A stretch of DNA of 64,000 nt, from NCBI GenBank assembly GCA_038315875.1, contig JBBQAG010000001.1, forward strand, positions 523 through 64,522. Direction: 5' to 3'. Origin of the DNA: Sphingomonadales bacterium (GTDB taxonomy: Bacteria; Pseudomonadota; Alphaproteobacteria; Sphingomonadales; Sphingomonadaceae). Positions 3,268 to 22,409 of the stretch are shown one piece after another. How positions within the stretch are numbered: the first letter of the stretch is position 1; the number at the start of each line of letters is the position of its first letter. The position numbers and the translations under genes are program-made. The notes beneath the pieces were generated by a model. The model saw only the letters and a program-made list of their open reading frames with translations. It did not search any database and had not been told where the DNA came from.

Positions 3268-3274
3268 TCGCCGG

Positions 3275-4441: not shown

Positions 4442-4457
4442 CCCCAGGAGAAAACCA

Positions 4458-5560: not shown

Positions 5561-5585
5561 CCAATGTTTGACCACGCCAAACCAC

Positions 5586-5668: not shown

Positions 5669-5749
5669 TAAGGTAGGTGGGTTTGACCGCCAGCAGCGAT
5701 GGGTCTCCCTCTCCCCTGCGAGTAGGGACAAGGGAAAAGGAACGATGGG

Positions 5750-6616: not shown

Positions 6617-7365
6617 CGCTGCGCCTCGAAACCGACGGCGCCATCGCGCATCTGATCATCGATCGCGCGGCCAAGCGCAACGCGATCACCCAGGCGATGT
6701 GGGAGCAATTCCCCAGCCTGATCGCCGCCGCCATGGCCGATGAAGCGGTGCGCGTCCTGATCCTGCGTGCCGCCGGGCCGGGCGCCTTCTCGGCGGGTGC
6801 CGATATCGCCGAATTCAGCGTCGGCGCCCGCGACCCTGCGTGGCGCGCGGCCAACCAAGCCGCACTCGCAGGCGCCCAGATCGCGCTGACACGCGCGCCA
6901 AAGCCCGTCATCGCCCTTATCGAGGGCGATTGCATAGGTGGTGGCTGCGGCCTGGCGCTCGCCTGCGACCTGCGCGTCGCCACCGCCAACGCCCGCTTCG
7001 GCATTACGCCCGGCAAGCTGGGCCTCGTCTATTCGCTCCACGATACCAAGCTGCTCGTTGATGCCGTTGGCCCGTCCCAGGCCAAGCGGATTCTGTTCAC
7101 CGCTGCCCTGATCGATTCGGTCGAAGCACAGCGTATCGGCCTGGTCGATCTGCTGGATGAAGACCCGATCGCGCTCGCCGAAACGATCGCTGCCAATTCG
7201 CCGCACACCGCGCGGCAAGCCAAGGCGATGGTGCGACGTATCCTGGACGGCCAGGCGCATGACGATGCCGAGACCAACGCGCTGTTCGCCGAGGCATTCA
7301 CGCTGCCCGATTTCGAGGAAGGCGTTGGCGCCTTCCTCGCCAAGCGAAAGCCGGTGTTCAAATGA
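6613..7365 (+). CDS. Enoyl-CoA hydratase/isomerase (crotonase) family
   Basis: GTG 6613 overlaps the upstream stop. FSAGADIAEF, KPVIALIEGDCIGGG, ACDLRVA, EGVGAFLAKRKPVF. Confidence 0.9.
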   Translation: MTLRLETDGAIAHLIIDRAAKRNAITQAMWEQFPSLIAAAMADEAVRVLILRAAGPGAFSAGADIAEFSVGARDPAWRAANQAALAGAQIALTRAPKPVIALIEGDCIGGGCGLALACDLRVATANARFGITPGKLGLVYSLHDTKLLVDAVGPSQAKRILFTAALIDSVEAQRIGLVDLLDEDPIALAETIAANSPHTARQAKAMVRRILDGQAHDDAETNALFAEAFTLPDFEEGVGAFLAKRKPVFK

Positions 7366-8270
7366 GCGACTTTGTCACCCATGGGCGGATCATCGGCGGA
7401 TTGGCGACGGTGCCCGATCTTGAGGCGAGCCTCGCCGATTACCGCGATCGATTGGGGTTGAAGGTGATCGAGCACGGCCCCCTGCCCGACGATCTTGCTG
7501 CGAGCTGGGGGTGTCCCGCCAATGCCGGCGCGCGCTTTGCCAGACTCGCCCCGATCAGCGGCGCGCCGTGCAGCATGCGGCTGGTCGAACAGCCACTCGA
7601 TCGCGATTTCGTGCCCACGCGGAGCTATGGCTGGGCGGCGTTCGAGATCACCGTGCAGGATGTATTCGGCTGGCCCGAAAAGCTTGACGGCAGCGGCTTC
7701 GACATCGTTGGCCCGCCGAAGGAAATTCCCGGCCTTCCCTATTTCGTCGCGATGCAGATGCTCGGACGCGGGCGCGAGATGATCTATCTGAACGAGGTCC
7801 GCGAAAATACGCCAACCTCCGATCTGCCCCCTGCGGCATCACCCGTCGATCATCTGTTCATCGTCATCCTCGCGAGCCCGGACCGCGCGGCGACGATGGC
7901 CTGGTATCACGACACGCTGGGGCTGGAGGAAGGCGGTAGCTACACAATCCCCTATTCGATGATCAACAAGGCGTTTGGCTTGCCCGACGGCCACCTGACC
8001 TCGCTGAGCATGGCGCAGAAAGGGCGGATGCCGATCGTCGAGATCGACGATTATCCGGACGTGGCAACCCCGCGCAGGCGGTCAGCCGGCTTGCTACCCC
8101 CGGGCAATGCGCTGGTGACGCTGGCGGTCGACACGCTCGATCTGCCTGGGCTCGATTTCATCACCCCGCCGGCGCTGCGCGACGGTCCCTTCTATGCGTT
8201 GCGCCGCGCCGCGACGGTGATCGGCCCGGCTGGCGAGTTACTGGAACTGGTGGAGATTGATCACCAGTAG
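7362..8270 (+). CDS. VOC/glyoxalase family protein (multi-module)
   Basis: Repeated VOC modules: VPDLEASLADYRDRLGL, SPDRAATMAWYHDTLGL, IGPAGELLELVE. Start overlaps the upstream stop (ATGA). Confidence 0.75.
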   Translation: MSDFVTHGRIIGGLATVPDLEASLADYRDRLGLKVIEHGPLPDDLAASWGCPANAGARFARLAPISGAPCSMRLVEQPLDRDFVPTRSYGWAAFEITVQDVFGWPEKLDGSGFDIVGPPKEIPGLPYFVAMQMLGRGREMIYLNEVRENTPTSDLPPAASPVDHLFIVILASPDRAATMAWYHDTLGLEEGGSYTIPYSMINKAFGLPDGHLTSLSMAQKGRMPIVEIDDYPDVATPRRRSAGLLPPGNALVTLAVDTLDLPGLDFITPPALRDGPFYALRRAATVIGPAGELLELVEIDHQ

Positions 8271-8331
8271 CGACCGACTGACCGATCCCGTGACGAGGCC
8301 ATTTTCATCACCATTGCGAGCGCAGCGAAGT

Positions 8332-9045
8332 TCATCGGTCGCGAGGCGCCTGGTCCTTCAGTCGTGCCGCCGCTGCCATGGTTCGCGCATCGCGATCCGG
8401 CGAAAGCGCTGCTACCCGTTTGCGATAAAGTGCCACCGCATCGGCCCCCGCGCGTTCGGGTGAGCCACTATCGAAGGGCGGCGCGGGATCATATTCGAGG
8501 CTTAGTTGCACCATCCGGGCATGCGCCTCACCCCGGATTCGCGCGGTCAGCGCCAGTGCGAAATCGATGCCCGCCGTCACGCCGCCGCCCGTTACGCGAT
8601 TGCGATCGAAGACGTAGCGCGCTTGCTCGGGGATTGCGCCGAATGCAGCCAGATGCTCATGCTGCGCCCAGTGGCAGGTCGCACGATATCCCGTCAGCAA
8701 TCCGGCGGCGGCGAGCAGGATCGATCCAGTGCACACACTCGTTACCCACTCGGCGCCGGCAGCGGTCTTGCGCAACCATGCCAGCGTCGCATCGTCCTCC
8801 ATTGCCGCTGTCACGCCAAATCCGCCCGGCACGCACAGGATATCGGGCTGGGCGGCGGTGGCGAAGCTCGCGGTAGGATGAAGCGGGAAGCCGGCATCGG
8901 TCGGCACGGGACCCATCGTCTTGGCGACAAGATCGATCGTCATATTGCCGAGCCGCGACAGCACCTGTGCAGGACCGGTGAGATCGAGCTGGGTAACATC
9001 GGGAAACAGCAGAAACGCAACGCGGATCGGACTCAGTTCGGGCAT
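8332..9045 (-). CDS. DJ-1/PfpI family protein, isonitrile hydratase (InhA)-like
   Basis: FLLFPDVTQLDLTGP (Asp21), VPGG, SVCTG (Cys105), ATCHW, GGGVTAGIDFAL, VQLSLEYDPAPPFDSGSP. The 84-residue Asp-Cys spacing equals InhA Asp17/Cys101. SD GGAGG at 9055-9051. Confidence 0.88.
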   Translation of the reverse strand: MPELSPIRVAFLLFPDVTQLDLTGPAQVLSRLGNMTIDLVAKTMGPVPTDAGFPLHPTASFATAAQPDILCVPGGFGVTAAMEDDATLAWLRKTAAGAEWVTSVCTGSILLAAAGLLTGYRATCHWAQHEHLAAFGAIPEQARYVFDRNRVTGGGVTAGIDFALALTARIRGEAHARMVQLSLEYDPAPPFDSGSPERAGADAVALYRKRVAALSPDRDARTMAAAARLKDQAPRDR

Positions 9046-9069
9046 ATCGACCTCCAGCTATTCGAGGGA

Positions 9070-9139
9070 TGCCCAGGCGATGCGGCTGCAAACCCCGCGC
9101 TCCCCGGTGGTGCTCCACCCGATCGCCAGTTACGCGGTT
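9070..9139 (-). ncRNA. ZMP/ZTP (pfl motif) riboswitch aptamer
   Basis: Minus strand reads AACCGCGUAACUGGCGAUCGGGUGGAGCACCACCGGGGAGCGCGG-GGUUUGCA-GCCGCAUCGCCUGGGCA. P1 CCGCGU/GCGCGG, ACUGGCGA, P2 GGUGG/CCACC, GGGGAGC, P3 GCC/GGC, pseudoknot GGCG/CGCC. Ends 25 nt before the start codon. Confidence 0.9.
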
Positions 9140-9281
9140 ATGCCAATAGGTATCGCTGATTGGGGTCGTTTTCCAGCGTAAAGTCGGGCTGTCGTCCGGT
9201 CCCTTGATGGCACGGCAACACGAAACGTCTGCGTAACGGCTGCGTGCTTTTCAGATTCTTGCCATTATCATCCGCTAGGCC

Positions 9282-10667
9282 ATGCGCCCACTTCCTCAAT
9301 TCGCTGCCGGTTGCGCGATCATGCTTTCCGGATGTGCGCCTGTGCCCCGCATTGCCGTGCCACTAGCGGTGTTGTCGGTTGATTGGAGCCGCGATCCACA
9401 TGATCAAGGCGAGCTGACCAACCGGTCGCTTGCCGACATGCTGGGGTCGTCCGCGCTCGCCGCGCTGATCGATCGGGCGATGATCGCCAGTCCCCCGCTG
9501 ATCGCCGCCCGTGCACGGGTCGATCAGGCGGTGTCGCAGGTGCGTGTCGCGCGGTCGACAGGTCTGCCGCTGGTGTCGGCATCGGCGGGCGGCAGTGCTG
9601 CACGCGTTGGCGGGCGCAGTCCGTTCGATTTCACCAGCAGCTTTGCCGCCCTCGATGCGAGTATTTCGATCGACATTTCGGGCGGCATCCGCGCCGGACG
9701 TCGCGCCGCACGTGATCGCGTGAGTGCTGCCGATCTCGATGCGCAGGCGCTCGCGCTGGAAATCGGCGTGACGATTGCCCGGGTTTATGTCGATCGCGCG
9801 GCATTTCAGGCCAGGCTGAGGCTGATCGATCGCCAGATTGCCGCGACGACCCAGCTCCAGCACCGCATCGAGGCACGGCAGCGTGGCCACGCGCCGACGC
9901 CGATCGCGATCGGACTGCAATTGATCCGAGTCCAGAATCTGATCGCCGAGCGCAGCCGCCTCGATCAGGCGCTCGATCAGACCCGCACCGCGCTGGCCCT
10001 GCTGCTGGGTGAAGAGGCGCCGCGCTTTCGCGCAGTGCCAGCCGATCTTAACGCCTTCGATTACCGGACGACGACGGTACCAAGCCCCTCGCAGTTGCTG
10101 ATCGAGCGTGCCGATATCGCTGCTGCCGAACGTCGTATCGCTGCCGCTGGGGGGGACGTGGCACAAGCGCGCGCGGCCTTTCTGCCCCGGCTGGACCTGT
10201 CGATCAGCCGATCGGCAGAGAATTTCCTGACAGCAGGGCCATTTGCCGGGATGAGCATTGGCGGCGCCTTGCTCGCCCCGATCTTTGGCCGTGGCAGACT
10301 GCGCGGCAATCTCGAATTTGCCACCGCAGGACAGCGCGAGGCGGTCGCCAACTATCGAACGGTGCTGCTATCGGCCTTTTCCGATACCGAAAATGCGCTG
10401 TCGGCAGTTCGTCACGCCCGAGAGCGCGCCGCACTTCTCGCCGATATCGAACAGCGGGCGCTGACGACGGCGTCGCTGGCGGAGCGTCGTTATTTGACCA
10501 GCGGGGGTGATTTCTGGGCGGTAATCAATGTCCAAGACCTGTCGATCGCGGCGCAGGACGCCCGGCTCGTCAGCCTTCAGGAACAGCTCGAAGCGAGCAT
10601 CTCTCTCTACCGAGCGACACGGCGATCAGCGACGGCACCACGATTAGACGATAACCCGACAGACTGA
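9282..10667 (+). CDS. Outer-membrane factor (NodT/OprM/TolC family) lipoprotein
   Basis: Lipobox LSGC; two OEP-like repeats; signature PSQLLIERADIAAAERRIAAA...ARAAFLPRLDL. Confidence 0.85.
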   Translation: MRPLPQFAAGCAIMLSGCAPVPRIAVPLAVLSVDWSRDPHDQGELTNRSLADMLGSSALAALIDRAMIASPPLIAARARVDQAVSQVRVARSTGLPLVSASAGGSAARVGGRSPFDFTSSFAALDASISIDISGGIRAGRRAARDRVSAADLDAQALALEIGVTIARVYVDRAAFQARLRLIDRQIAATTQLQHRIEARQRGHAPTPIAIGLQLIRVQNLIAERSRLDQALDQTRTALALLLGEEAPRFRAVPADLNAFDYRTTTVPSPSQLLIERADIAAAERRIAAAGGDVAQARAAFLPRLDLSISRSAENFLTAGPFAGMSIGGALLAPIFGRGRLRGNLEFATAGQREAVANYRTVLLSAFSDTENALSAVRHARERAALLADIEQRALTTASLAERRYLTSGGDFWAVINVQDLSIAAQDARLVSLQEQLEASISLYRATRRSATAPRLDDNPTD

Positions 10668-10786
10668 ACGTCGCCGGCGGCGCGGCGCACTGGCATTTGC
10701 GGCACCTGCGGTTAGGATGCCGTCGATGCATACCGAGCGGCCGTCGCGGTCGATCATGCGATAATGACTGCGGGGCTTGGCGGATT

Positions 10787-11461
10787 TTGAATTACTGGCT
10801 GCTCGCGGGAATCGGCGTCGTCATTCTGGGCTTTGCGCTCCGGCTCAATCCGCTGCTGGTGGTTGCGGCGGCGGCAGGGGCGACAGGGCTGGCTGCGGGG
10901 ATGGCACCGCTTGCGATCATTGCGGCGTTCGGCAAATCCTTCAACGACAGCCGCTTCGTCACGATCATCTATATCCTGCTGCCCGTCGTCGGCTTGCTCG
11001 AACGGTACGGGCTGCAGCAGCGCGCGCGGACGGTGATCGGCGGCATCAAGGGCGCATCGGTCGGGCGGCTGCTGATCGCCTATATGCTGTTCCGCCAGAT
11101 AACTTCGGCGCTGGGGCTCATCTCAATCGCAGGCCCTGCCCAGACCGTGCGGCCGCTGGTCGCGCCAATGGCAGAGGCAGCGGCCGAGCGTGATCATGGC
11201 GATATCGATAATGCCACCCGGCAAAAGGTAAAGGCGTTTGCCGCGGCGAGCGACACGATCGGGCTCCTGTTCGGCGAAGATCTGTTCGTCGCGATTGGAT
11301 CGATCCTGCTGATCATTGGCTTTTTGAAGCAGAACGGCATCGAACTCGCGCCCTTCGAGCTTTCTGTCTGGGCGATCCCCAGCGCAATTGCGGCTTTCGC
11401 TGTCCACGGGCTACGCTTGCTGCTGCTCGACAGGGCATTGGCGAAGGCGCCGCGCCGATGA
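10787..11461 (+). CDS. DUF969 family membrane protein (predicted 5-oxoproline transporter subunit)
   Basis: Probable TTG start 10787 (NYWLLAGIGVVILGFALRLNPLLVV); LLERYGL, GPAQTVRPLVAPMAEAAA, GLLFGEDLFVA. Confidence 0.85.
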   Translation: MNYWLLAGIGVVILGFALRLNPLLVVAAAAGATGLAAGMAPLAIIAAFGKSFNDSRFVTIIYILLPVVGLLERYGLQQRARTVIGGIKGASVGRLLIAYMLFRQITSALGLISIAGPAQTVRPLVAPMAEAAAERDHGDIDNATRQKVKAFAAASDTIGLLFGEDLFVAIGSILLIIGFLKQNGIELAPFELSVWAIPSAIAAFAVHGLRLLLLDRALAKAPRR

Positions 11462-12399
11462 TCGGTCTGCCCGCGCTCTATGGCCTTGCCGGGCTGATTT
11501 TTGTCGGCTTCGCGATGATGAACGCGCGCGATGCGAGCAACCAAAAGCGGCTGGGGAATGGCGCCTTTTGGGGCTTGATCGCGGTCAGCTTTCTGCTCGG
11601 CGACTGGCTCGGAGATATCGGCAATGGTTTTCTCGCGCTGGGGCTGGTCGTGCTGGCGGGGTTCCGGCTGCTCGGGCGCGGCAGCCAACCGACGACGACT
11701 ACGCAGGAACGCAAAGAGAGCGCCGCGCTGCTTGGCAACCGCCTGTTTCTGCCAGCACTCATCGTGCCCGTCTGTGCGCTGCTTGGCACCGTGTTTCTGA
11801 AGGACAGCGGCCTGGTCGATCCCAAGCAGGTGACGTTGGTATCGCTCGGCGCGGGCGTGCTGATCGCGCTCGCGGTCTGCTATGCCTGGCTCAGGCCGCC
11901 GCTGCTCGCGCCGATCGACGAAGGTCGGCGGCTGATGGATTCGGTCGGCTGGGCAGCCGTTTTGCCACAGATGTTGGCCTCGCTCGGCGCCTTGTTCGCC
12001 TTGGCAGGGGTTGGGCAGGTGGTGGGGGCGCTGGCGGGCATGGCGATTCCACCAGGTAATCTGTTCGTCGCGGTATCGGTCTACGCGCTTGGCATGGCGA
12101 TGTTCACGATGCTGATGGGCAACGCTTTTGCCGCCTTCCCGATCATGACGGCGGCGATTGGCTTGCCCATTCTCGTCGGCGGCTTTCACGGCGATCCAGC
12201 GATCATCTGTGCGATCGGGATGCTTGCCGGCTTTTGCGGCACGCTGATGACGCCGATGGCCGCCAATTTCAACATCGTGCCGGCTGCATTGCTCGAACTC
12301 GACGATCAGAATGCGGTGATCAAGGCGCAGATCGGCACGGCGGTGCCGATGCTCGTGATCAACCTGCTGCTCATCTATTTCCTGGGGTTCAAGCAATGA
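11458..12399 (+). CDS. DUF979 family membrane protein (predicted 5-oxoproline transporter subunit)
   Basis: GWAAVLPQMLASLG, MGNAFAAFP, GTLMTPMAANFNIVPAALLEL, VIKAQIGTA; coupled to DUF969 by ATGA. Confidence 0.88.
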   Translation: MIGLPALYGLAGLIFVGFAMMNARDASNQKRLGNGAFWGLIAVSFLLGDWLGDIGNGFLALGLVVLAGFRLLGRGSQPTTTTQERKESAALLGNRLFLPALIVPVCALLGTVFLKDSGLVDPKQVTLVSLGAGVLIALAVCYAWLRPPLLAPIDEGRRLMDSVGWAAVLPQMLASLGALFALAGVGQVVGALAGMAIPPGNLFVAVSVYALGMAMFTMLMGNAFAAFPIMTAAIGLPILVGGFHGDPAIICAIGMLAGFCGTLMTPMAANFNIVPAALLELDDQNAVIKAQIGTAVPMLVINLLLIYFLGFKQ

Positions 12400-13382
12400 T
12401 CGATTCAGCGATCGCCAGCCGCTTTGCCGAGATCGCGCTTGGCCATGTTACGCGCGAGTATCCCAACAAGCTTGATCACGCGATGATCAATCCTGCAGAC
12501 GTGCAGGGCCCACGCGCGCTGCATCCGATCTTTTTCGGCAGCTATGATTGGCATAGCTGCGTCCATGGCTATTGGCTGCTGCTGCGGGTGCGGCGTGACT
12601 TTCCCGATATGGCGATCAACGCGCGGATCGAGGCGCTGGTCGCCGAAATGGTGACGGCGGCCAATGTCGAGGCCGAGCGCGCCTATCTCGATAGACCAAG
12701 TTCGGGCGGGTTCGAGCGGCCCTATGGTTGGGCATGGATGCTCGCGCTGCACGGCGAGGCGGCGCTGTCCGATCGGGGCGACTGGGCGGCATTGCTCGAA
12801 CCACTTGCACGCGCCTTTGCCGAACGGTTCAAACAGCATCTGCCCAAGCTCACCTATCCAATCCGCGTGGGCGCGCATGCCAATACCGCCTTCGCCATGA
12901 TCCTCGCGCGGCGATGGGCAGTTGCGCACGATATCGCGCTGCTCGACCTGATCGATGCTCGGGCGCGCGATTATTATGCCAATGACCGCGATTGCCAGGC
13001 CTGGGAGCCAGGCGGAGACGAGTTCCTGTCGTCTGCGCTGACCGAGGCCCATTGCATGGCGCGCATTCTGGGGCCCCAGGCATTCCGCGCCTGGTTTGCT
13101 GAATTCCTGCCGCGTTTTGCAGAAGGGCACCCCGCCAGCCTGTTCACGCCGGCGACCGTTTCCGATCGATCGGATGGCAAGATCGCCCATCTCGATGGCT
13201 GCAATCTGAGCCGTGCCTGGTGCCTGCGGGCAATCGCCGGCGCGCTGAACCCGGCAGAGGCGGCGGTCGCCCTCCGATCGGCCGAGCGTCATGCCGCTGC
13301 CTCGCTGAACCAGGTCGCCGGCGATTATATGGGCGAACATTGGCTGGCGACCTTCGCCCTGCTGGCTCTCCTGTCCGAATAA
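12396..13382 (+). CDS. DUF2891 family protein
   Basis: ATG 12396 (ATGA). REYPNKLDH, LHPIFFGSYDWHSCVHGYW, FERPYGWAW, HLDGCNLSRAW, YMGEHWLATFA. Confidence 0.85.
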   Translation: MIDSAIASRFAEIALGHVTREYPNKLDHAMINPADVQGPRALHPIFFGSYDWHSCVHGYWLLLRVRRDFPDMAINARIEALVAEMVTAANVEAERAYLDRPSSGGFERPYGWAWMLALHGEAALSDRGDWAALLEPLARAFAERFKQHLPKLTYPIRVGAHANTAFAMILARRWAVAHDIALLDLIDARARDYYANDRDCQAWEPGGDEFLSSALTEAHCMARILGPQAFRAWFAEFLPRFAEGHPASLFTPATVSDRSDGKIAHLDGCNLSRAWCLRAIAGALNPAEAAVALRSAERHAAASLNQVAGDYMGEHWLATFALLALLSE

Positions 13383-13408: not shown

Positions 13409-13426
13409 AATTTGTCCGGACATATT
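13409..13426. promoter_or_regulatory. Palindromic operator copy 1 (AATTTGTCCGGACATATT)
   Basis: 18-bp near-perfect palindrome abutting a plausible -35 TTGCAT (13426-13431), 16-nt spacer, -10 TAGCCT (13448-13453), upstream of the DUF1838-like gene. Confidence 0.75.
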
Positions 13427-13487
13427 TGCATTTTTCCGCGAACGCGCTAGCCTTGGCAACATCGCACAAGCTGCATTGGGGGATAGC

Positions 13488-14381
13488 ATGATCCGTTCGC
13501 TTCTGTTGGCCGTCAGCGTTGCCGCCATTTCACTCGCTGCGCCCGCCGCTGCCCGTCAGCTCGATCCCAATGTGCCCGCCGATGCGCTCGAGATCAGCAA
13601 GCGCACACAGTGCGGTGCAAAGGATGGCGAGCCAGCGGTATATCATTGGTCGGGCAAGGTTTATTCCAGGATTGAGGGCGAGCCAGACAAGCTGCTGTTC
13701 CTTGGCGAGGGGATGAATATCCGCCAGTGCGTCGCTGTCGACGATGCCAAGCGGGGCAAGGGCTATCGGCAGGTCAGTCGTGAAGTCATGCTGTTTCTCG
13801 ATCCCAAAACGGGGGAGATTGCGCGCCAATGGGCAAATCCCTGGACCGGTGAAACGCTGCCCGTCGGCCATATCGCCAATGATCCTGTCAACGGCCGGCC
13901 GAGCTTTCCGATCGGCGCTGACGGCAAACCCTATACCGTGACGATCAATCGGATGGGTGCCTGGGCGCAGATGCCCGTCGAAGTGCCGCTATTCTACGAA
14001 AACCCCCTTGGCGGCGATTATCAGGATTATGTCGGCAACAAATATCACGCGATGGAAATCTTCGATTTCGCCGCGCGCGCTGACGAACTGCTCGATACCA
14101 AATACCCCACCGCCTATCCCTCGGTATCTTGGGTGCGGATTTCCGATTGGATGCCGTGGATGAAGATGCGCGGCCGCCACGGCAACATTGTCTTCAACGC
14201 GATGGGCGCCAAGCTGAAAAACTTCGATGAATTGCCCAAGCTGCTGAAGGATGAGATCGCCAAGAACTATCCGGCCTGGACGTCGCCCCCGCCCGGCGAT
14301 GATGCGCGGCCCAACGATACGACCTGGACGGTGTTCAAGAAACAGATCGACTCCAGCCGCAAGGCAGCCGCCGGTAAATAA
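13488..14381 (+). CDS. Secreted DUF1838-like protein
   Basis: Signal peptide MIRSLLLAVSVAAISLAAPAAA; VYHWSGKVYSR...LFLGEGMNIRQC, QWANPWTGE, HIANDPVN, SWVRISDWMPWM. Confidence 0.75.
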   Translation: MIRSLLLAVSVAAISLAAPAAARQLDPNVPADALEISKRTQCGAKDGEPAVYHWSGKVYSRIEGEPDKLLFLGEGMNIRQCVAVDDAKRGKGYRQVSREVMLFLDPKTGEIARQWANPWTGETLPVGHIANDPVNGRPSFPIGADGKPYTVTINRMGAWAQMPVEVPLFYENPLGGDYQDYVGNKYHAMEIFDFAARADELLDTKYPTAYPSVSWVRISDWMPWMKMRGRHGNIVFNAMGAKLKNFDELPKLLKDEIAKNYPAWTSPPPGDDARPNDTTWTVFKKQIDSSRKAAAGK

Positions 14382-14386
14382 GGGCA

Positions 14387-15136
14387 TTATTTCGGCGGCG
14401 CGAACAACGCCTCATCGATGGGGGCGTTGACCTTGGTCTGGGTCCAGAACACTTCGTTGGCCTTCACGCCGTCATAATAGAGCGTGACGTGCCGCGCCTG
14501 AAGCCAGCGCGGATTTTTGAGCGTGACGAAATCGTCATAGATGCGGACGTGCCAGCCCTTGGGCGTTGCAAAGCCCATCGTTCGGATCGCGTAGCTCCGC
14601 TGGTCAATGCCAAACAACGTGCTGCCCCCGCTCGGATCGGTGAGGCGGACCATGTAAAGCGCGTGGCCATCGATCCGGTCATCGGGCACGCGCTCAGCCT
14701 TGAAGCCGGCGTCGGCGGCGTGGCGGATGATGCCGAAGCCGAAGTTGTTCGCCCAATAAGCATCGGCCTCCGCCTTTGGGACCAGACCGCGCTCGTTCCA
14801 TGTCGTGGCGCCATCATAGCCAATCGTGAACAGCGGCTTGCCCTTTGCGAGGGCGACGATCCGCACTTTGCCCTCGGCAGCGTGGGAGACTTCGCGACCC
14901 GGATCATAGACCCGCCACATCCGGTAATCGTCCGCGGTCGATCGTGGTGCGGCGCCTGAGGGACCGTAGAAGATCGCATTGCCGGATAGCGTGAGCGTCT
15001 TTGCCTTCGCCCAAGCCTCGCCACCTGCAGCCTCAGTTGCGCGCGCCAGGATCGTTCGTCCGTCGATCATCGCCTGCGCCGAAGCCGAGACCGGGACGGA
15101 AACGATCAGCGCAAGAGCGATGGTGCGCCTGATCAT
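14387..15136 (-). CDS. Secreted hypothetical protein (beta-rich, possibly LolA-like fold)
   Basis: SD GAAAGGA then ATG 15136; signal peptide MIRRTIALALIVSVPVSASA; ILARATEAAGGEAW; ends NAPIDEALFAPPK. Confidence 0.7.
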   Translation of the reverse strand: MIRRTIALALIVSVPVSASAQAMIDGRTILARATEAAGGEAWAKAKTLTLSGNAIFYGPSGAAPRSTADDYRMWRVYDPGREVSHAAEGKVRIVALAKGKPLFTIGYDGATTWNERGLVPKAEADAYWANNFGFGIIRHAADAGFKAERVPDDRIDGHALYMVRLTDPSGGSTLFGIDQRSYAIRTMGFATPKGWHVRIYDDFVTLKNPRWLQARHVTLYYDGVKANEVFWTQTKVNAPIDEALFAPPK

Positions 15137-15151
15137 CTTGGCATCCTTTCT

Positions 15152-15190
15152 AAAAAAAGAGCTCCCGTCGGCCTTTGCCGAGGGGAGCTC
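15152..15190 (-). terminator. Rho-independent terminator after the TonB-dependent receptor gene
   Basis: Minus strand GAGCTCCCCTCGGC-AAAG-GCCGACGGGAGCTC followed by T7. Confidence 0.85.
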
Positions 15191-15212
15191 AAGGCCATGG
15201 TATTCCAATCAA

Positions 15213-17867
15213 TCAGAAGTTGAACGTCGCCTCTACGCCAAAGGTGCGGCCCTTGCGCAACGCAGTGAAAAAGGCCCGTGGCGCGCCGGTTTCGATCTGC
15301 GCCGGGCGGCCGTCAAAAGTGACCGTGGCTGCAGCGGGCAATCCGGTCGTCCCCGCGCCGTAGCGATAATCGAACCAGCGCGTGGCAAGTGGCGCTGAGC
15401 TCTCGTCGGTCAGGTTACGGACAAAGCCGGCAATGCTGAACTGGCCCGAACGGATGCCGATCCGGCTGTTGGCGACGAAAGCATCGCCAACGCTTGCCAG
15501 ATTGTCGACCTGCACGAACTTGTGCGCTTCATAGCTGAAATTGGTGTTCGCCCAGAGCGACAAATTGCCCCGGAGCGGCACCGTGTAAGTAGCGTTGCCA
15601 TTGACGGTGACGGGAGAGCCGAGCGGCAGCGTCTTGCCTGAGATGCTGCACAGCGGCGCTGCGGCAGCGGTTGGGTTGCGGGTATCGAAATTGGGTCGCA
15701 GCCCACCTGAGTTGAGGATGAACTGATCCGCATCACAGCCCGAGGTGAAGCGTGCATCCACGAACGAGAAGCCGAAGCCAAGGTTCAACCGATCGCTTGG
15801 CGCCGCCTGGACTTCGAGTTCAAAGCCGCTGGTGCGCGCATTGCCCTGGTTGGTGACGATCGACGTGATCGCCCCGGTCCCATTGGGGTTCGGGATCGCT
15901 GTCGTCAGCTGGACATCGGTCAATTGCGTCGTGAAGGCCGAGAACTGAACCCGAAGGCGATTGTCGATCAGCGAAAATTTCGTGCCGATTTCGAACCCTT
16001 CGGATTTTTCCGCCAGATAGTTGACGAAATTCTGCCCGGTCTGAGTGCTCGCCGTCACGCCGGCACCGCCATTGAAGCCGCTTGGTTTGCGGCCTTGAGC
16101 GTATATGCCGTACAACAAGAGGCCGCCGGGCGTGGTGTAGTTGATCGTGACGCGCGGCGTCGTGCCGGTGTCCTTGTTCTCTGGCAGACAATTGGCGGTG
16201 GTGAATGTGCCGAACACGTTGCTCGTGCCGGCATAGCCCGCGCAGAACAGCGGTGCCGACGCGAAATCAAGCGATTTGCGCGTTTCCTCGGCATAGCGGA
16301 CTTCGCCGGTGATCGACAGGTTCTTGGTGATATCCCAGGTCAGCAGCCCGAAGACCGCCATGTTTTCCAGCTCGTTGCGGTTCGAACCGATTGCGCCGAG
16401 CGGATCACCGACGATTGGATTGGCGAAGGTGAGATCGCGCCCATCGGTTTTCTGCTTGAAATAATAGCCGCCAATCAGGCCGTGGACGGGATAGGTGGTT
16501 GGCGACGCGATCCGGATTTCCTGGCTGAAATCATAGCCGTCGTTGCGCGTGGTGTTGGCAAAGGCAGGTTCGGTGACCAGCGGATTGGGCGCAGTACCGC
16601 CGATCGCGGGATTGGTGTTGAAGTAGAAAAACGACTCGCTGTGATCGGAATCGGTACCGAACAGGTTATTGTTCGCTCGATATCCCGAAAGGCTCGAAAA
16701 GACGAAGCCAGAGCCAAGAATATCCCAGTCGACGATCGCCGTGCCGTAATATTGATCGTTCTGGATGCCGTCAAAAGCGGTGCCGTCATAAACACCGCTG
16801 ATCGTCGGCGTACGAAAATTTGGCGGCTGGCCGGTAAAGCCAGGGATCGTCACCGCGATTGGATCGGTATTCAGGCGGATATTGTTCGGCTGCGGCTTGA
16901 TGGTGCCGCAGAAATACTGGTTCGTATTCGTCGACGTGCCAAGCGTTGCCGGGATGTAGGGCAGCGCACTGGAAACGGTCCGATAGCGCGCAGAACGGAA
17001 GCCGGGTGCGCAATTATTGTCGGCCGCCCCTTGCAGGAACAGCGCCAATGGTCCGTCGCGGTTCTGCTGATATTGGCCGCGCAGCCGGATCTTGAGGTCG
17101 TCGCTCGGGGTGAAGTTGAGCAGCGCATAGAACGAGTCGGTGCGCTCATTACCCACCTTTCGGCCCGTCAGCTGGTTGGTATATTGACCGCCATATTCAT
17201 AATGACGCCCGCCAACGCGAAATCCGAGCAGACCGGGAATGATCTGTCCGGAAATAGACGCCGACACCGTGTATTCCTTATACTCGGCAACCGAAGCACG
17301 GCCCGATACCGTGAGATGCTCGGTCGGGTCCTTGGTGATGAAGTTGATCGCGCCAGCATAGGTATTGCGACCGTAGAGCGCCGATTGCGGCCCCTTGATC
17401 ACTTCGACGCGCTGCAGCGATTCGGGATCGAAGCCCTGGATGTCGCCCTGATAGTAAATGCCATCGACGAAATAGGCAGCGCCCGATTCGACGCCGAACT
17501 GGACGTTGGCGAGCACGTTGGAGGCGCCGCGGACTACCGGGCGATCAGAGGAGCGACCGAACGCCTGGCTGAAGCTGATACCCGTCGCCTGCTTGGCGAA
17601 ATCATCGATGCTGTTCAGGCCGAGTGTCCGGATTTTCGCATCCGACAGCACCGACACTGACACTGGCGCCTTTTCGATGCTTTCTTGAATTTTGCGCGCG
17701 GTGACGATGATGTCTTCAAGGCCAGACTGGCCTGCCGGCATCTCCTCGACGGCCGGCGCTGCCGATGTCGTAGCCGGCGCCTGCTGCGCCGATGCAGCAC
17801 CCGGCATCATCGCAACGGAGCCCAAGGCCGTTGCCGCCATCAGCGCAATTCGAGTTACCCCCCGCAT
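15213..17867 (-). CDS. TonB-dependent receptor
   Basis: Signal peptide; EDIIVTARK; plug motif YFVDGIY...RVEVIKGPQSALYGRNTYAGAINFITK; beta-barrel; C-terminal GRTFGVEATFNF. Confidence 0.95.
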   Translation of the reverse strand: MRGVTRIALMAATALGSVAMMPGAASAQQAPATTSAAPAVEEMPAGQSGLEDIIVTARKIQESIEKAPVSVSVLSDAKIRTLGLNSIDDFAKQATGISFSQAFGRSSDRPVVRGASNVLANVQFGVESGAAYFVDGIYYQGDIQGFDPESLQRVEVIKGPQSALYGRNTYAGAINFITKDPTEHLTVSGRASVAEYKEYTVSASISGQIIPGLLGFRVGGRHYEYGGQYTNQLTGRKVGNERTDSFYALLNFTPSDDLKIRLRGQYQQNRDGPLALFLQGAADNNCAPGFRSARYRTVSSALPYIPATLGTSTNTNQYFCGTIKPQPNNIRLNTDPIAVTIPGFTGQPPNFRTPTISGVYDGTAFDGIQNDQYYGTAIVDWDILGSGFVFSSLSGYRANNNLFGTDSDHSESFFYFNTNPAIGGTAPNPLVTEPAFANTTRNDGYDFSQEIRIASPTTYPVHGLIGGYYFKQKTDGRDLTFANPIVGDPLGAIGSNRNELENMAVFGLLTWDITKNLSITGEVRYAEETRKSLDFASAPLFCAGYAGTSNVFGTFTTANCLPENKDTGTTPRVTINYTTPGGLLLYGIYAQGRKPSGFNGGAGVTASTQTGQNFVNYLAEKSEGFEIGTKFSLIDNRLRVQFSAFTTQLTDVQLTTAIPNPNGTGAITSIVTNQGNARTSGFELEVQAAPSDRLNLGFGFSFVDARFTSGCDADQFILNSGGLRPNFDTRNPTAAAAPLCSISGKTLPLGSPVTVNGNATYTVPLRGNLSLWANTNFSYEAHKFVQVDNLASVGDAFVANSRIGIRSGQFSIAGFVRNLTDESSAPLATRWFDYRYGAGTTGLPAAATVTFDGRPAQIETGAPRAFFTALRKGRTFGVEATFNF

Positions 17868-17925
17868 CGACTATCTCCCCCGAGTTTAAATCCCTTGTCA
17901 TGTAGACTTTCATTCCGGCATAAAC

Positions 17926-17937
17926 TTGTCCAGACAA
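17926..17937. promoter_or_regulatory. Palindromic operator copy 2 (TTGTCCAGACAA)
   Basis: About 59 nt upstream of the receptor start; extra CTTGTC half-sites at 17894 and 17940. Confidence 0.75.
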
Positions 17938-18106
17938 ATCTTGTCCTGGAGAGTGTAAGCGAATGGAGTGTTGCCGAACTGTTACACTCCACTCCCGGGC
18001 AATGCGTTGGCGCGAGGGGAATGACGATGCAGGATCGACACCCGCCTTTTAACGGCGTCCAGTGGCCGGCGAATGGCTTGGTTCGAGCCAAGGGGAGGCC
18101 TCCCCA

Positions 18107-18538
18107 ATGAGCACGGCGCTATTCAACGCCTATGCCGCTGCCTAGAGCACGGGCCGGGCAGAGGCGATTACCGACTTTTGGGATCGTTCAGCATTTCGCT
18201 TTTACAAGGCAGAAGAGGTGGCCGATATCTTCACCACCTGGGAAGAAGTCGAGCGGTACTGGCACGGCAATGAGGCGATGCATGAAACCGTGCGGCTAGG
18301 TTTTTCCGATATCATGCCCGTCCCGCTGGATGGCCGGTTCAGCCTGCTGATCGCGCGGATGCGCTGGGATATCCGTTTTGCAACCAGCGCGCCTGCCGCC
18401 GTTGCCGGGCGAGCGATGGGCGGTGACAATCATGTGGTTGCGTTGATCGCGGGCGATAGTTTTGCTGGCTGGTGCGAGGCGCCTGATGCCGCGATCAGCT
18501 ATATCCGGCGGCTGTATGAGGATTCCGCACGGCTTTAA
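18107..18538 (+). pseudogene. NTF2/SnoaL-like frame interrupted by an in-frame TAG (18143-18145)
   Basis: SD GGAGG then ATG 18107: MSTALFNAYAAA*STGRAEAITDFWDRSAFRFYKAEEVADIFTTWEEVERYW..., continuous with ORF 18218-18538. Fold assignment is by pattern only. Confidence 0.65.
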
Positions 18539-18574
18539 ACTTTGGCGCTTGCGTCGTTCCGGCGGTTAGGTAGC

Positions 18575-18586
18575 TTGTCCGGACAA
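18575..18586. promoter_or_regulatory. Palindromic operator copy 3 (TTGTCCGGACAA, perfect)
   Basis: Overlaps a plausible -10 TAGCTT (18571-18576), with -35 TTGCGT (18549-18554) and a 16-nt spacer; 16 nt before the DUF1330 start. Confidence 0.8.
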
Positions 18587-18602
18587 ATTGGGAGCCCGAT
18601 CG

Positions 18603-18908
18603 ATGCCCGCCTACATGATCGTGACCGCCAAGATCGCCGATCGCGAGGCATTTATCGGCGGCTATGGCCAGGCGGCGGCCAAGCTCGTCGCTCAATTCGG
18701 CGGCAGATATGTGCTGCGCGGGCCCGGCGTGTCCTTGCTGGAGGGCGATTTCGGCGAGGGCGCATCAATGGTGATTTCCGAATGGCCCGATCGTGCGGCT
18801 GCCGAGGCATTCTGGAACTCGCCCGATTATGCCGAGGTGAAAAAACTGCGCGCAGGCATCGCCGATTGCCAGGTGCTGCTGATCGAGGCACCGACGATCA
18901 ATGGCTGA
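18603..18908 (+). CDS. DUF1330 family protein
   Basis: MPAYMIV...FGGRYVLRG...LEG...VISEWPDRAAAEAFWNSPDYAEVKKLR. Confidence 0.88.
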   Translation: MPAYMIVTAKIADREAFIGGYGQAAAKLVAQFGGRYVLRGPGVSLLEGDFGEGASMVISEWPDRAAAEAFWNSPDYAEVKKLRAGIADCQVLLIEAPTING

Positions 18909-19377
18909 TTACGCGCCCGATCTGATCAAGCGGACGACGCTGATCGTGCGTGACATCGAGGCGGCAGCGCCTTGGTATGAGCAGGTTTTCGGCATGACGC
19001 GGGTAATGGATACCCCCTTCACGCTTTCTGGAACGCAGCTCGCGGCGGGAGCCAAGGGCGACAAGACCCGGCTGGTCATCCTGAAATGCGCCGATGATCT
19101 GGTTGGCATGATCGGCTTGCTTCAATGGGTCGACCCGGCGATGCCAGCACCAGCCGAATTGCCGACGCGGATCGCCTTTGGTACGCCGATCTTCGTCGTG
19201 GCGGCAACCGACTGCCGCGCGACGACTGACCGCGCGCGCGATGCTGGCAGCCGCATCCACAGCGAACCGCGCGACTGGACGGTGACGGGATTCGACGGCA
19301 CGGAGCAGGCGATGGTCGGCGCAAGCTTCTTCGATCTCGACGGCTATTTCTTTGAAGTGAACGAGCGCGTGGCTTGA
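18901..19377 (+). CDS. VOC/glyoxalase family protein
   Basis: RTTLIVRDIEAAAPWYEQVFGM; FFDLDGYFFEVNE. Confidence 0.82.
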   Translation: MADYAPDLIKRTTLIVRDIEAAAPWYEQVFGMTRVMDTPFTLSGTQLAAGAKGDKTRLVILKCADDLVGMIGLLQWVDPAMPAPAELPTRIAFGTPIFVVAATDCRATTDRARDAGSRIHSEPRDWTVTGFDGTEQAMVGASFFDLDGYFFEVNERVA

Positions 19378-19817
19378 GCGGCGTGCGGTTCCAGCGGGGC
19401 AACCACGTCGTCGCCGATCTTGATCGGGCACTCTGCTTTTATCAGGGCGTGCTGGGCTTCGACGTGACATTCACGCTGCCGCACAACCCGGAAAGCTATT
19501 CCTTTCCCGTCTTCGATATCCCGCCCGAGGCCAGGATGCGCTTTTGCGTGCTGTCGACGCAGACGCAGGAACGCGTGATGGCATTGACCGAGATCGCCGC
19601 GGTTGCTCTCGCCCCGGTGCCACACCCTCGCCGATCGGCGATCGTGTTGGAAATAGAGGATCCCGATGCAGTCATGGCGGGTGCCCGCGCGCTCGGCCTC
19701 AGGGTTTATGACGAGGAAGTGCTGAAGACCAAGGACGGGCGCGTTGGCCGGGAGATCGGCATCGTCGATTTCGATGACAATCTGGTGGTGATCTACAAGA
19801 TCACTGGCGCCGCATGA
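19374..19817 (+). CDS. VOC/glyoxalase family protein
   Basis: TTG start overlapping the upstream TGA; RGNHVVADLDRALCFYQGVLGF; GIVDFDDNLVVIY. Confidence 0.78.
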   Translation: MSGVRFQRGNHVVADLDRALCFYQGVLGFDVTFTLPHNPESYSFPVFDIPPEARMRFCVLSTQTQERVMALTEIAAVALAPVPHPRRSAIVLEIEDPDAVMAGARALGLRVYDEEVLKTKDGRVGREIGIVDFDDNLVVIYKITGAA

Positions 19818-21124
19818 ACGAGGCAATGGAGGCCCCCTATCCAGCGTCGCGCACCGCCTGGACGATGGTGTTGCTGCTGACGCTTGCCTACGTCTTCTCG
19901 TTTGTCGATCGCTATATCCTTGGCCTGCTGATTGAGCCGATCAAGGCCGATTTGCATTTTTCCGATGAGAAGATCGGCTATCTGCTGGGCCCTGCCTTCG
20001 CGCTTTTCTATGCGACGATCGGTGTGCCGCTCGGCTGGCTTGCGGATCGGGCGCGACGGACGTGGATCGTCGCGGCAGGCATCACCCTTTGGAGCCTTGC
20101 GACCGCGGCTTCGGGGATGGCGCGCGGCTTTGGCGGGCTGTTCGTCGCGCGGATGAGCGTTGGCGTTGGCGAGGCGACGCTCAGCCCTTCTGCGATGTCG
20201 ATGATCAGCGACAGTTTTCCGCCCGAAAAGCGCGGAGCGCCGATCGGCGTCTATTCGGCAGCGTTGTCGCTTGGCGCGGGCGTCGCTTCGCTCATCGGGG
20301 CGGCAGTGCTCGGTTGGGCAAAAGTATCGAGCGGCATGACGCTGCCATTGCTCGGCGCAGTGAAGCCTTGGCAATTTGCCTTCCTCGCGGTTGGCCTGCC
20401 GGGATTGTTGATCGCCATCGCTTTCCTGTTTCTACCGGAGCCGCTGCGTCGGCGTGGGCCCGGCAATGCCCAGGCAGCGGGCTTTGGCGCTACGATCGGG
20501 TTCGTCGGCCGGCAGATCGGCGCGTTCGGGGGCATGACGCTGCTGGTCGCCGTCATGACGATCATTGCCTATTCGCAAGGCTTCAACCCCGCTGCCTTTG
20601 CCCGCACCTATGGCTGGGAGGCCAAGGATTATGCGCTTGTGAATGGCCTGATCATCCTCGTCGTTGGGCCAGCAACGGTCTATTCGACTGGCGCGATCGT
20701 CGATCGCTGGCGCAAGAACGGCACCCGCGACGCGGCGTTCCGGATGCTGAGCTATGGCTTTGTCGCGATGCTACCGCTCAGCGCCGTCCCATTGTTCATG
20801 CCCACCCCTACCCTCGCCTTTGTGATGCTTGCGCTAAGCTCGGCTTCAATCGGCACGGTAACCGCAGCCGGGATCATCGCGCTGCTCGACATCACGCCAG
20901 GCGCCTCGCGTGCGACGATCGTGTCGCTTTACTACATGCTGATCAGCATCGCCGGGCTGGGCCTTGGACCGACAACGGTGGGCGTGCTTTCCACGCGCGT
21001 TTTCGGCGAGGCCAATCTGCGGGCTGCGGTGGGATCGGTGCCGCTGATCTATGGCCTGGTCCCGTTGCTGTTGCTGCCGCTCATCGCGCGCACTTATCGG
21101 GCGCAGCTGGCGCGGACGACGTGA
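19814..21124 (+). CDS. MFS transporter (spinster-like)
   Basis: About 12 hydrophobic segments; FSFVDRYILGLL; motif A GWLADRARR; RMSVGVGEA. Confidence 0.92.
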   Translation: MNEAMEAPYPASRTAWTMVLLLTLAYVFSFVDRYILGLLIEPIKADLHFSDEKIGYLLGPAFALFYATIGVPLGWLADRARRTWIVAAGITLWSLATAASGMARGFGGLFVARMSVGVGEATLSPSAMSMISDSFPPEKRGAPIGVYSAALSLGAGVASLIGAAVLGWAKVSSGMTLPLLGAVKPWQFAFLAVGLPGLLIAIAFLFLPEPLRRRGPGNAQAAGFGATIGFVGRQIGAFGGMTLLVAVMTIIAYSQGFNPAAFARTYGWEAKDYALVNGLIILVVGPATVYSTGAIVDRWRKNGTRDAAFRMLSYGFVAMLPLSAVPLFMPTPTLAFVMLALSSASIGTVTAAGIIALLDITPGASRATIVSLYYMLISIAGLGLGPTTVGVLSTRVFGEANLRAAVGSVPLIYGLVPLLLLPLIARTYRAQLARTT

Positions 21125-21423
21125 AGCATTTCACGATCATATGCTGGGATGCCCATGGTTCGGCGCCGATCCGCGCGTCTGCTCGCGACGCGCACTTCGC
21201 CCGCACTGAGGCAATCATCGACCGTCTGGCCATCGCCGGCCCGCTGAAAGACGCAAGCGGCGCGTTTACTGGATCGCTGGTAATTGTTACCGCCGAGGAC
21301 GAGGCTGGCGCGCGTGCAATTCTGGAAGGTGACCCCTATTTTGCGGCAGGCGTATGGGCCCGCTTTGAAATCAGCGAGTTCGTGCCTGCTGCCGGCGGCT
21401 GGATCGGTGGCAAGATCTGGTAA
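21121..21423 (+). CDS. YciI family protein
   Basis: GTG 21121 overlaps the MFS stop; RDAHF, AGPLKD, TGSLVIV, DPYFAAGVW. Confidence 0.85.
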   Translation: MKHFTIICWDAHGSAPIRASARDAHFARTEAIIDRLAIAGPLKDASGAFTGSLVIVTAEDEAGARAILEGDPYFAAGVWARFEISEFVPAAGGWIGGKIW

Positions 21424-21434
21424 GGATGTAAAAG

Positions 21435-22409
21435 ATGGCACGCGCTGCAATCATCAGAAGCACGGGCGGCCCAGAGGTGATCGAGTGGACCGATATCGAC
21501 CTGCCGCCACCGGGCGCAGGCGAAGTGCGATTTGAAACCCGGGCGGCGGGCCTCAATTTCATCGACACCTATCACCGGCGGGGCATCTACCCGATCGATC
21601 TACCCAGCGGCCTGGGTATGGAGGGCGCGGGTGAGATTTCCGCAATTGGCGAGGGGGTGACAACGCTTGCTGTTGGAGACCGCGTCGCAACCTTTGGCCC
21701 TCAACGGGGCGCCTATGCGACTGCGCGCAACCTGCCCGCAACGTCGCTGTTCAGGCTGCCCGATTCGATCGATTTCGAGACAGCGGCAGCCGCGCTGTTG
21801 AAGGGCTGCACCGCCGAATTCCTCGCTGAGCGTGTCGCACACGTGATGCCGGGGGATTGGGTGCTGGTGCATGCCGCCGCCGGTGGCGTCGGGCTGATCC
21901 TGGTGCAGTGGCTGAAGGCAATCGGCGCCAGGGTGATCGGCACGGTCGGCAGTGAGGACAAGGCGGCGCTGGCGCGCAGCGCCGGGGCTGACGAGGTCAT
22001 CCTGTATCGCCACGAAGACATTGCCAAGCGGGTGCGCGATATCACCAGCGGCGCGGGCGTACGGGTGGCGTATGACGGGATCGGTCAGGCGACCTGGAAC
22101 GCTTCGCTCGATTCAACCGGCCGGCGCGGGATCATCGTCAGCTATGGCAATGCCGATGCGCCCGTGACGGGGGTCGCGCTCGGCATCCTCGCGACCAAGG
22201 GCTCGCTCTACAATACCCGGCCGACGCTGTTCGATTATTACACCACGCCCGAAGAGCGAGCAGCGGGCGCCGCACGGCTTTGGGAGATGATCGCGGGCGG
22301 CAAGGTGAAGGTGACGATTGGGCAGCGCTATCAGCTTGAAGATGCCGCGCAGGCGCACCGTGACCTCGAAGGCCGCCATACCCATGGATCGACGTTGCTG
22401 GTGCCCTGA
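21435..22409 (+). CDS. qor: NADPH:quinone oxidoreductase (zeta-crystallin/MDR family)
   Basis: GLNFIDTYHRRGIYP, LGMEGAG, VLVHAAAGGVG, YDGIG, GSTLL. Confidence 0.88.
   Translation: MARAAIIRSTGGPEVIEWTDIDLPPPGAGEVRFETRAAGLNFIDTYHRRGIYPIDLPSGLGMEGAGEISAIGEGVTTLAVGDRVATFGPQRGAYATARNLPATSLFRLPDSIDFETAAAALLKGCTAEFLAERVAHVMPGDWVLVHAAAGGVGLILVQWLKAIGARVIGTVGSEDKAALARSAGADEVILYRHEDIAKRVRDITSGAGVRVAYDGIGQATWNASLDSTGRRGIIVSYGNADAPVTGVALGILATKGSLYNTRPTLFDYYTTPEERAAGAARLWEMIAGGKVKVTIGQRYQLEDAAQAHRDLEGRHTHGSTLLVP

Follow-up and report, generated by a model that had tools for sequence, protein, structure and literature searches.

HutC is a repressor that is released by its effector, and the dre sites recognised by another regulator of the same subfamily, DasR of Streptomyces, have the full form TGGTCTAGACCA. 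DasR and NagR (YvoA) of Bacillus subtilis have likewise been described as repressors released by effectors (PMC4333415, PMC4918961). Sites of the GntR family, to which all of these proteins belong, take the form NyGT-Nx-ACNy, with a spacing of 3 nucleotides (nt) in FadR and of 4 nt in most HutC-subfamily sites, and FadR-, HutC- and YtrA-type sites commonly have weak additional boxes 7-12 nt away from their centres (PMC4494728). The supplement of that study lists the HutC sites TTGTATATACAA and CTTGTATATACAAG, a DasR dre core, GGTCTAGACC, and the actinobacterial sites ATGTCCGGACAT and TTGTCCGGACAT of the HutC-type regulator IolR (PMC4494728). In the structure of NagR bound to DNA, Arg38 reads the G at -5, Arg48 reads the G at -4 and the wing residue Gly69 enters the minor groove (PMC4333415). 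Here we compare with these systems a palindromic word, TTGTCCGGACAA, that recurs in a 64,000-nt stretch of a Sphingomonadales bacterium (GCA_038315875.1, contig JBBQAG010000001.1; positions 523-64522 of the contig that we call C81, hereafter the window), part of a 2.63-Mb, 166-contig assembly of 63% GC. The sequence evidence makes it very probable that a dimeric GntR/HutC-subfamily regulator, encoded on a second contig, C17, uses this word as its operator.

A preliminary description of the window had reported three copies of the palindrome, starting at 13412, 17926 and 18575, and both their sequences and their coordinates proved exact. When one mismatch to TTGTCYRGACAA was allowed, the 64-kb window yielded these three matches against 0.12 expected, and none of 100 shuffles contained as many. 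The copies, with their scores against a position weight matrix (PWM), and one accompanying half-site are as follows.

13409-13426: operator 1, AATTTGTCCGGACATATT, an 18-bp near-palindrome with the core TTGTCCGGACAT at 13412-13423 (PWM 32.5 bits)
17923-17940: operator 2, AACTTGTCCAGACAAATC, with the core TTGTCCAGACAA at 17926-17937 (PWM 28.4 bits)
17941-17946, plus strand: auxiliary half-site TTGTCC, 11 nt from the centre of operator 2
18572-18589: operator 3, AGCTTGTCCGGACAAATT, with the core TTGTCCGGACAA at 18575-18586 (PWM 25.2 bits)

Start codons are found 22-71 nt downstream of all three copies. The centre of operator 1 lies 70 nt from the ATG of a DUF1838 gene (13488), that of operator 2 lies 64 nt from the ATG of a TonB-dependent receptor on the minus strand (17867), and that of operator 3 lies 22 nt from the ATG of a DUF1330 gene (18603), with the end of the operator 16 nt 5' of this ATG and 3 nt 5' of a GGGAG Shine-Dalgarno sequence. 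Operator 2 also faces a divergent NTF2-like open reading frame (ORF). Two additional CTTGTC half-sites had been proposed at the receptor; the one represented by the TTGTCC box at 17941-17946 stands, whereas the other (17894-17899), some 35 nt from operator 2, is not convincing. With two mismatches permitted, six matches were seen where 3.0 are expected. The extra ones (906, 32392 and 57359) do not rise above chance, so that the remainder of the window has no credible copy, in keeping with the earlier remark that the housekeeping half contains none.

The genome codes for only two GntR-family proteins, one of which combines a GntR with a UTRA domain and is encoded in the same gene island as the operators.

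C17:7459-8208, minus strand (window -1406 to -657): GntR+UTRA regulator

The GntR winged helix-turn-helix (PF00392) of this protein scores 68.6 bits in the genome-wide search and 66.7 bits on the protein (cut-off 27), and its UTRA domain (PF07702, a chorismate-lyase fold; residues 109-239) scores 72.7 bits (cut-off 23.8), a combination that assigns the regulator to the HutC subfamily. Both the family of the regulator and the location of its gene upstream of window nt 1 had been anticipated in the preliminary description. The location depends on the order of two contigs, as an assembly break between C17 and C81 falls inside the island. The ends of these contigs share 7 nt (TCGACTG), and the end of C17 codes for the N-terminus of an MmgE/PrpD protein whose reading frame continues across the join into C81, which starts within the same protein at window position -522. 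In addition, C17 and C81 map contiguously on a 90%-related genome (G041), and a second relative (G021) has the matching gene order of CoA-transferase, regulator, PrpD and PrpD. This contiguity places the regulator gene 657 nt before window nt 1. A 223-amino-acid (aa) ORF between two operator sites on C17 was considered as the regulator and rejected, being a multi-pass membrane protein without a helix-turn-helix. Assignment to the FadR subfamily was also rejected, as it would need GT-N3-AC, whereas a 4-nt spacing and a UTRA domain are seen.

In a logo of 164 sites, the operator reads AAtTTGTCCGGACAAaTT, with GT and AC 4 nt apart. The flanking positions -2 and -3, which were outside the search pattern, are A in 85% and 65% of sites, respectively, and extend the palindrome to 18 bp. 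The operator thus follows the documented NyGT-N4-ACNy rule (PMC4494728), with an A/T-rich periphery. Its placement is also that of HutC-type sites, upstream of co-localised operons, near the regulator gene and conserved across genomes. HutC itself shares the GntR winged helix-turn-helix and UTRA architecture with our regulator, and its operator, (C/T)TTGTATATACAAG, has identical TTGT...ACAA arms with GT and AC 4 nt apart, as do both HutC sites in the supplement (PMC4494728), but carries ATAT at the centre in place of CCGG. HutC lacks an Arg at the position of NagR Arg38, reading PSE(S/N) where the regulator described here reads PTES, and it likewise has a site beside its own gene and controls catabolic and transport operons. 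The targets differ, however, being receptors, CoA-dependent enzymes and amidohydrolases here, with no hut genes among the Pfam-scanned ORFs of the island, and the regulator falls short of the model for HutC proper (TIGR02018; 97 bits against a cut-off of 220).

The closest solved structures are those of NagR/YvoA (2wv0 and 4wwc, E 8e-19) and DasR (4zs8), whose dre sites are even palindromes of the same GT-N4-AC type, whose ligands are GlcNAc-6-P and GlcN-6-P, and whose regulons differ from the present one, which is without an amino-sugar link. Full-length alignment to 2wv0 equates NagR Arg38, Arg48 and Gly69 with Ser40, Arg50 and Gly71 of the regulator, so that the Arg48 and Gly69 contacts are kept. 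The residue corresponding to Arg38, which reads G at -5 in NagR, is replaced, and operator positions -5 and -4 are T and G, matching a non-Arg residue at position 40 and the retained Arg50. Arg50 and Gly71 do not vary across eight homologues, in which position 40 is occupied by Ser, Asn, Ala or Thr and in no case by Arg. This provides a case within the HutC subfamily in which residue and base change together, Arg38 to Ser with G-5 to T. The IolR sites offer nearly the same 12-mer, CCGG centre included, although they were predicted by comparative genomics and not measured, and they belong to an unrelated lineage and regulon (myo-inositol catabolism); they indicate that HutC-subfamily proteins can use the CCGG word.

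Across the whole 2.63-Mb genome there are five exact copies of the motif, against about 0.26 expected from base composition and none for the reversed-pattern control, so that the motif is rare and not frequent at random positions, a frequency that the preliminary description had named as evidence against a regulon. A scan with a 20-bp PWM made from orthologous loci, in which genomic matches were judged to be intergenic or coding by individual inspection rather than by automatic gene calls, revealed six sites at 25.2-33.6 bits; the next best match had 18.8 bits and the maximum in the reversed genome was 13.1 bits. The six strong sites, all of which have genes directly downstream, are spread over three contigs. 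Three lie outside the window, two on C17 and one on C35, and a weaker site accompanies them.

C17:1828 (window -7037): strong site between a TonB-dependent receptor and a membrane protein
C17:2596 (window -6269): strong site 36 nt before the start of an operon for a CitE-like lyase, a MaoC hydratase, an acyl-CoA dehydrogenase and two family III CoA-transferases
C35:12201: strong site between divergent operons, with the isochorismatase on one side and the alpha/beta-hydrolase on the other
Window -552 (8313-8324 in locus L001): weak site CTGTCCGGACAC, within the initial codons of the first PrpD gene

The three promoter regions previously held to make up the regulon are therefore real, but the regulon is about twice the size described, and the further site suspected upstream of nt 1 is represented by two strong sites and a weak one. 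The first C35 operon codes for an isochorismatase, two PuuE-like proteins and an aldehyde dehydrogenase, and the second for an alpha/beta-hydrolase, a DUF3598 protein, LeuC, LeuD and an HMG-CoA-lyase-like protein. Within the window, the genes at or near the operators are the following, and the labels given them earlier, including those of the YciI-like gene and the exported proteins, agree with Pfam and with ORF reading.

1-8270, plus strand: operon for PrpD, PrpD, PaaK-like ligase, amidase, SDR, PuuE-like protein, crotonase and VOC protein (Pfam, NCBIfam)
13488-14381, plus strand: exported DUF1838 protein (Pfam PF08894, 3.4e-69; signal-peptide-like N-terminus MIRSLLLAVSVAAISLAAPAAA)
14387-15136, minus strand: exported 249-aa protein without a family match (signal-peptide-like start MIRRTIALALIVSVPVSASAQA)
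15213-17867, minus strand: TonB-dependent receptor with plug and beta-barrel domains
18218-18538, plus strand: 106-aa ORF between operators 2 and 3, without a family match
18603-22409, plus strand: operon for DUF1330, VOC, VOC, MFS transporter, YciI-like protein (about 21121-21423) and NADPH:quinone reductase (Pfam, NCBIfam, ORF reading)

The receptor and the 249-aa exported protein form one target operon (14387-17867, minus strand). The PrpD operon starts outside the window, divergently from the regulator gene, and is a probable member of the regulon via the weak site at -552. PWM matches of 13-19 bits (C82:20798, C82:16173, C103:2773, C5:15141, C112:4055 and C158:2298) were not counted as members because they are coding, may form the first codons of ORFs (ATG-TCC-GTA-CAA) or are without a convincing target. 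Two of these, C82:20798 and C103:2773 (15-19 bits), read ATGTCCGTACAA on the opposite strand, where putative ORFs would begin M-S-V-Q, and they are probably not operators.

Comparison with relatives showed that the motif is retained in front of orthologous genes and that it occurs together with the regulator. When 24 further genomes of the genus were searched for the regulator, it was present in G021 (74% identity) and G019 (53%) alone. Exact motif counts in the three carriers, including the genome under study, are five (own genome), four and one; a single exact copy was found in one of the 22 non-carriers and none in the rest. In G019, three sites fall within 12 kb of the regulator gene. A scan for orthologues with one genome per species identified 149 relatives, and the best 80 of the 149, with regulators 57-90% identical, were analysed; almost all of these carry the label of a Sphingomonadales genus or of unclassified Proteobacteria. 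The 10-kb flanks on either side of these 80 orthologues (1.33 Mb) contain 126 exact sites and 164 sites with at most one mismatch, against 0 and 11, respectively, in the reversed control. Moreover, 15 orthologue-bearing genomes searched in full each hold 3-9 exact sites, against 0-1 in the control, and these cluster around the regulator gene.

In many genera a site lies 110-160 bp upstream of the regulator gene, between it and the first PrpD gene, and falls within the first 30 codons of this divergent MmgE/PrpD gene. In Sphingomonas and Sphingobium types, the embedded site encodes N-I-V-R-T-R after an "RPI" motif, and in Novosphingobium types it encodes L-V-R-T before the "RPI" motif. Loci L030-L037 carry the embedded operator at about 9839-9854, and loci L061, L070, L073 and L078 carry it at 9893-9904. 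In two close relatives (L021 and L022) the regulator-adjacent site is intergenic. The use of different codons in different lineages indicates that it is the DNA word that is conserved and not the peptide, adding a case of an operator maintained inside coding sequence. In the genome under study, the weak CTGTCCGGACAC site probably serves both autoregulation and the PrpD operon.

Individual sites of the window are also retained in relatives. Before DUF1838, TTGTCCGGACAT is kept in the same orientation in G041, G042 and G043, and TTGTCCAGACAA takes its place in G048; in a four-genome alignment, operator 1 and the adjoining ATATTTGCATTT form the only long invariant block. Before the receptor, a site is present in all six further genomes and in G021, and in 8/8 genomes, our own included, the variant reads TTGTCTGGACAA towards the receptor. 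Operator 2 is the only long invariant block of the intergenic alignment at the receptor, and G021 has a second full site, TAGTCCGGACAA, at the position of the auxiliary half-site. In G043, G044, G048 and G049 (loci L101-L104), the receptor is only 27-28% identical and yet the operator and its orientation are retained; the receptor has here been exchanged while the control element in front of it stayed the same. All six relatives examined retain the C35-type site. A separate DUF1330 site is found in only one of six relatives, G041; in G042 and G043 the DUF1330 gene uses the receptor's site, and in G044, G048 and G049 it follows the receptor gene.

Gene order shows related patterns. The receptor and 249-aa protein genes are paired in G041 and G042, the gene order of the DUF1330 operon recurs in G041 and G043, and the PrpD operon is syntenic with the regulator in G021, G019, G041, G048 and G049. 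The 106-aa ORF has a 75%-identical homologue in the corresponding position in G041 but none in G042 or G043. In relatives, the regulated operons together form one island. A block at window 8332-13382 (DJ-1/PfpI, an outer-membrane efflux protein, DUF969, DUF979 and DUF2891) is without an operator, is missing from the island in all six relatives examined and looks like a lineage-specific insertion or rearrangement. Separately, an inverted repeat, GGAGTGT-N12-ACACTCC, with 7-bp arms, occupies 17965-17990 between operator 2 and the NTF2-like ORF. Its blocks GAGTGTTACAG and GCAACA are nearly invariant across four genomes, and the element could be a promoter, possibly for an alternative sigma factor, or the site of a second regulator.

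Based on these data and on the analogy with NagR and DasR, the regulator would most likely act as a ligand-released repressor. Each winged-helix domain of a dimer would read one TTGT half-site of the extended consensus AAtTTGTCCGGACAAaTT, with Arg50 contacting the G at -4 and the wing residue Gly71 lying in the minor groove. In its ligand-free form the regulator would sit on sites about 22-75 nt ahead of the start codons and prevent transcription, until its UTRA domain bound a substrate or intermediate of the pathway and the DNA was released. Possible ligands are a branched C5-dicarboxylate, the amide or imide from which it would be formed, and a CoA ester. The six strong sites would control receptor 1 and the divergent membrane protein; the CitE-like operon; the divergent isochorismatase and alpha/beta-hydrolase operons; DUF1838; receptor 2 and the exported protein; and the DUF1330 operon, and one inducer may serve all of these operons, as had been suggested before. 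Physical binding, repression as the direction of control, and the ligand are what we infer from the sequences.

A different possibility is that the palindrome is regulatory but that the HutC-type protein is an activator or a dual regulator, or that another transcription factor binds it, which we consider unlikely. Several observations nevertheless count against ligand-released repression by this particular protein. The two copies earlier said to touch -35 or -10 boxes gain no support from a sigma-70 consensus scan of the gene's strand, which found no promoter overlapping any of the sites, leaving only weak hexamers visible by eye; with no consensus promoter to place relative to the sites, there is room for activation, and the geometry is one that we infer. 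Sites 1 and 2, 64-71 nt upstream of their starts, fit the position of an activator too. A sequence search of public runs matched four metagenome DNA runs and no RNA run. The centre of the operator is CCGG (C 94%, G 94%) or CCAG, with the inner TA changed to CG, and departs from the central MTAK of HutC (GTMTAKAC); one orthologue locus, L084, has no site in its full 20-kb flanks; and in the genome under study the regulator-adjacent site is degenerate, with only the 10-bp core left. Finally, G038, a genome from a different family within the order, contains TTGTCCGGACAA in five exact copies, located ahead of TonB-dependent receptors and an HMG-CoA-lyase-like gene, although its HutC homologues, one of which adjoins a 70%-identical MaoC gene, are only 32-35% identical to the regulator and it thus has the motif without a close regulator orthologue (contigs C4, C409, C422, C533, C551 and C316; L111-L116). 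The operator word seems to be common to a wider clade of paralogues, and assignment to the exact protein rests on proximity and co-occurrence. Against these points, the G038 homologues share the DNA-reading residues PTE(S/T)xLC, Arg50 and Gly71. The Pfam-scanned ORFs, which do not include every small ORF, contain no other regulator gene, and the characterised HutC-subfamily proteins NagR and DasR are described as repressors (PMC4333415, PMC4918961). Position also speaks for repression: operator 3 and the CitE-operon site, 16 and 36 nt from their start codons, are so close that they would have to overlap the promoter or lie downstream of it, which leaves too little room for a class I or II activator, and the end of operator 3 in particular is where a repressor would be expected. 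The TTGTCTGGACAA orientation creates TGGACA, which matches the -35 hexamer TTGACA at five of six positions; this suggests, but does not prove, that operator 2 overlaps a -35 box.

It is far less probable still that the copies are non-regulatory, whether as chance or compositional matches, remnants of repeats or mobile elements, or by-products of a conserved peptide, and as far as computation allows this is refuted. The copy at -552, which is exact in other genera, does lie inside coding sequence and encodes V-R-T, and a few weak look-alikes are gene starts of the type ATG-TCC-GTA-CAA. However, the six strong sites are all directly upstream of genes, the 126 exact copies near orthologues compare with none in the control, and the coding-embedded copy falls on different codons in different lineages. 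Furthermore, just 12-18 bp are conserved within otherwise diverged intergenic DNA, and no flanking repeat structure was seen. Operation as a HutC-type repressor site thus remains the reading we prefer.

What the operator controls can be described only in outline. None of the regulated enzymes reaches an NCBIfam equivalog cut-off, and the substrate could therefore not be named. The best match of the CitE-like lyase is RipC/Ccl (200.9 against a cut-off of 375) and that of the MaoC hydratase is RipB/Ich (238 against 340), both below the scores for membership; other best matches are to succinyl-CoA:mesaconate and succinate-glutarate CoA-transferases, LeuCD and HMG-CoA-lyase subfamilies, PuuE-like hydrolases (three copies), a PaaK-like ligase and an AS-family amidase. 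This repertoire points to uptake, through the receptors and the MFS transporter, followed by amide or imide hydrolysis and then by CoA-dependent breakdown of what may be branched C5-type dicarboxylates.

The extended itaconate cluster of Pseudomonas includes an acyl-CoA dehydrogenase, MmgE/PrpD and VOC proteins. Acyl-CoA dehydrogenase, PrpD-family and VOC genes are also neighbours here, the lyase and the hydratase find their best, sub-cut-off matches in the Ict/Ich/Ccl (RipA/B/C) set of that cluster, and the family III CoA-transferases resemble succinyl-CoA:mesaconate transferase. The island is, however, much larger, adding the amidase, three PuuE-like proteins, the isochorismatase, LeuCD, the HMG-CoA-lyase-like protein, two TonB-dependent receptors and many DUF proteins, and we know of no HutC-type regulator described for itaconate clusters. 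The searchable literature yielded no description of the regulon or the island: searches for DUF1838 and for sphingomonad itaconate or citraconate returned nothing on the island, and the papers retrieved by searching full texts for the core TGTCCGGACA all dealt with p53 or other unrelated subjects.

In total, the island contains two TonB-dependent receptors, the exported DUF1838 and orphan proteins, the MFS transporter, three PuuE-like hydrolases acting on rings or amides, an isochorismatase-like amidase, an AS-family amidase, LeuCD, HMG-CoA-lyase-like and CitE-like lyases, the MaoC hydratase, at least four family III CoA-transferases, two MmgE/PrpD proteins and several VOC, DUF1330, YciI and DUF3598 proteins, and it is conserved across Sphingomonas, Sphingobium, Novosphingobium, Blastomonas, Sandarakinorhabdus, Sphingopyxis and Sphingorhabdus. 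We tentatively suggest, while regarding it as rather doubtful, that the operator delimits a catabolic island of some 45 genes and about 50 kb that encodes a new pathway, which would import a precursor containing an amide or imide and convert it to CoA esters of alkyl-substituted maleate, fumarate or succinate, with the HutC-type sensor, part of whose operator set lies within coding sequence, as its switch. Alkyl-maleimides from tetrapyrrole breakdown are a speculative candidate for the precursor.

The mode of regulation proposed here, with a HutC-type repressor, a palindromic operator and a local regulon, is that of the textbook. The operator provides a sequence-level definition of a gene set that is scattered over three contigs in this assembly and rearranged between genera, and that covers at least seven proteins without an assigned function (DUF1838, DUF1330, DUF3598, the YciI-like protein, two VOC proteins and two orphan exported or membrane proteins). 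In this way, an anonymous set of enzymes that is widespread in environmental Sphingomonadales becomes a testable unit, the inducer of which would reveal the substrate.

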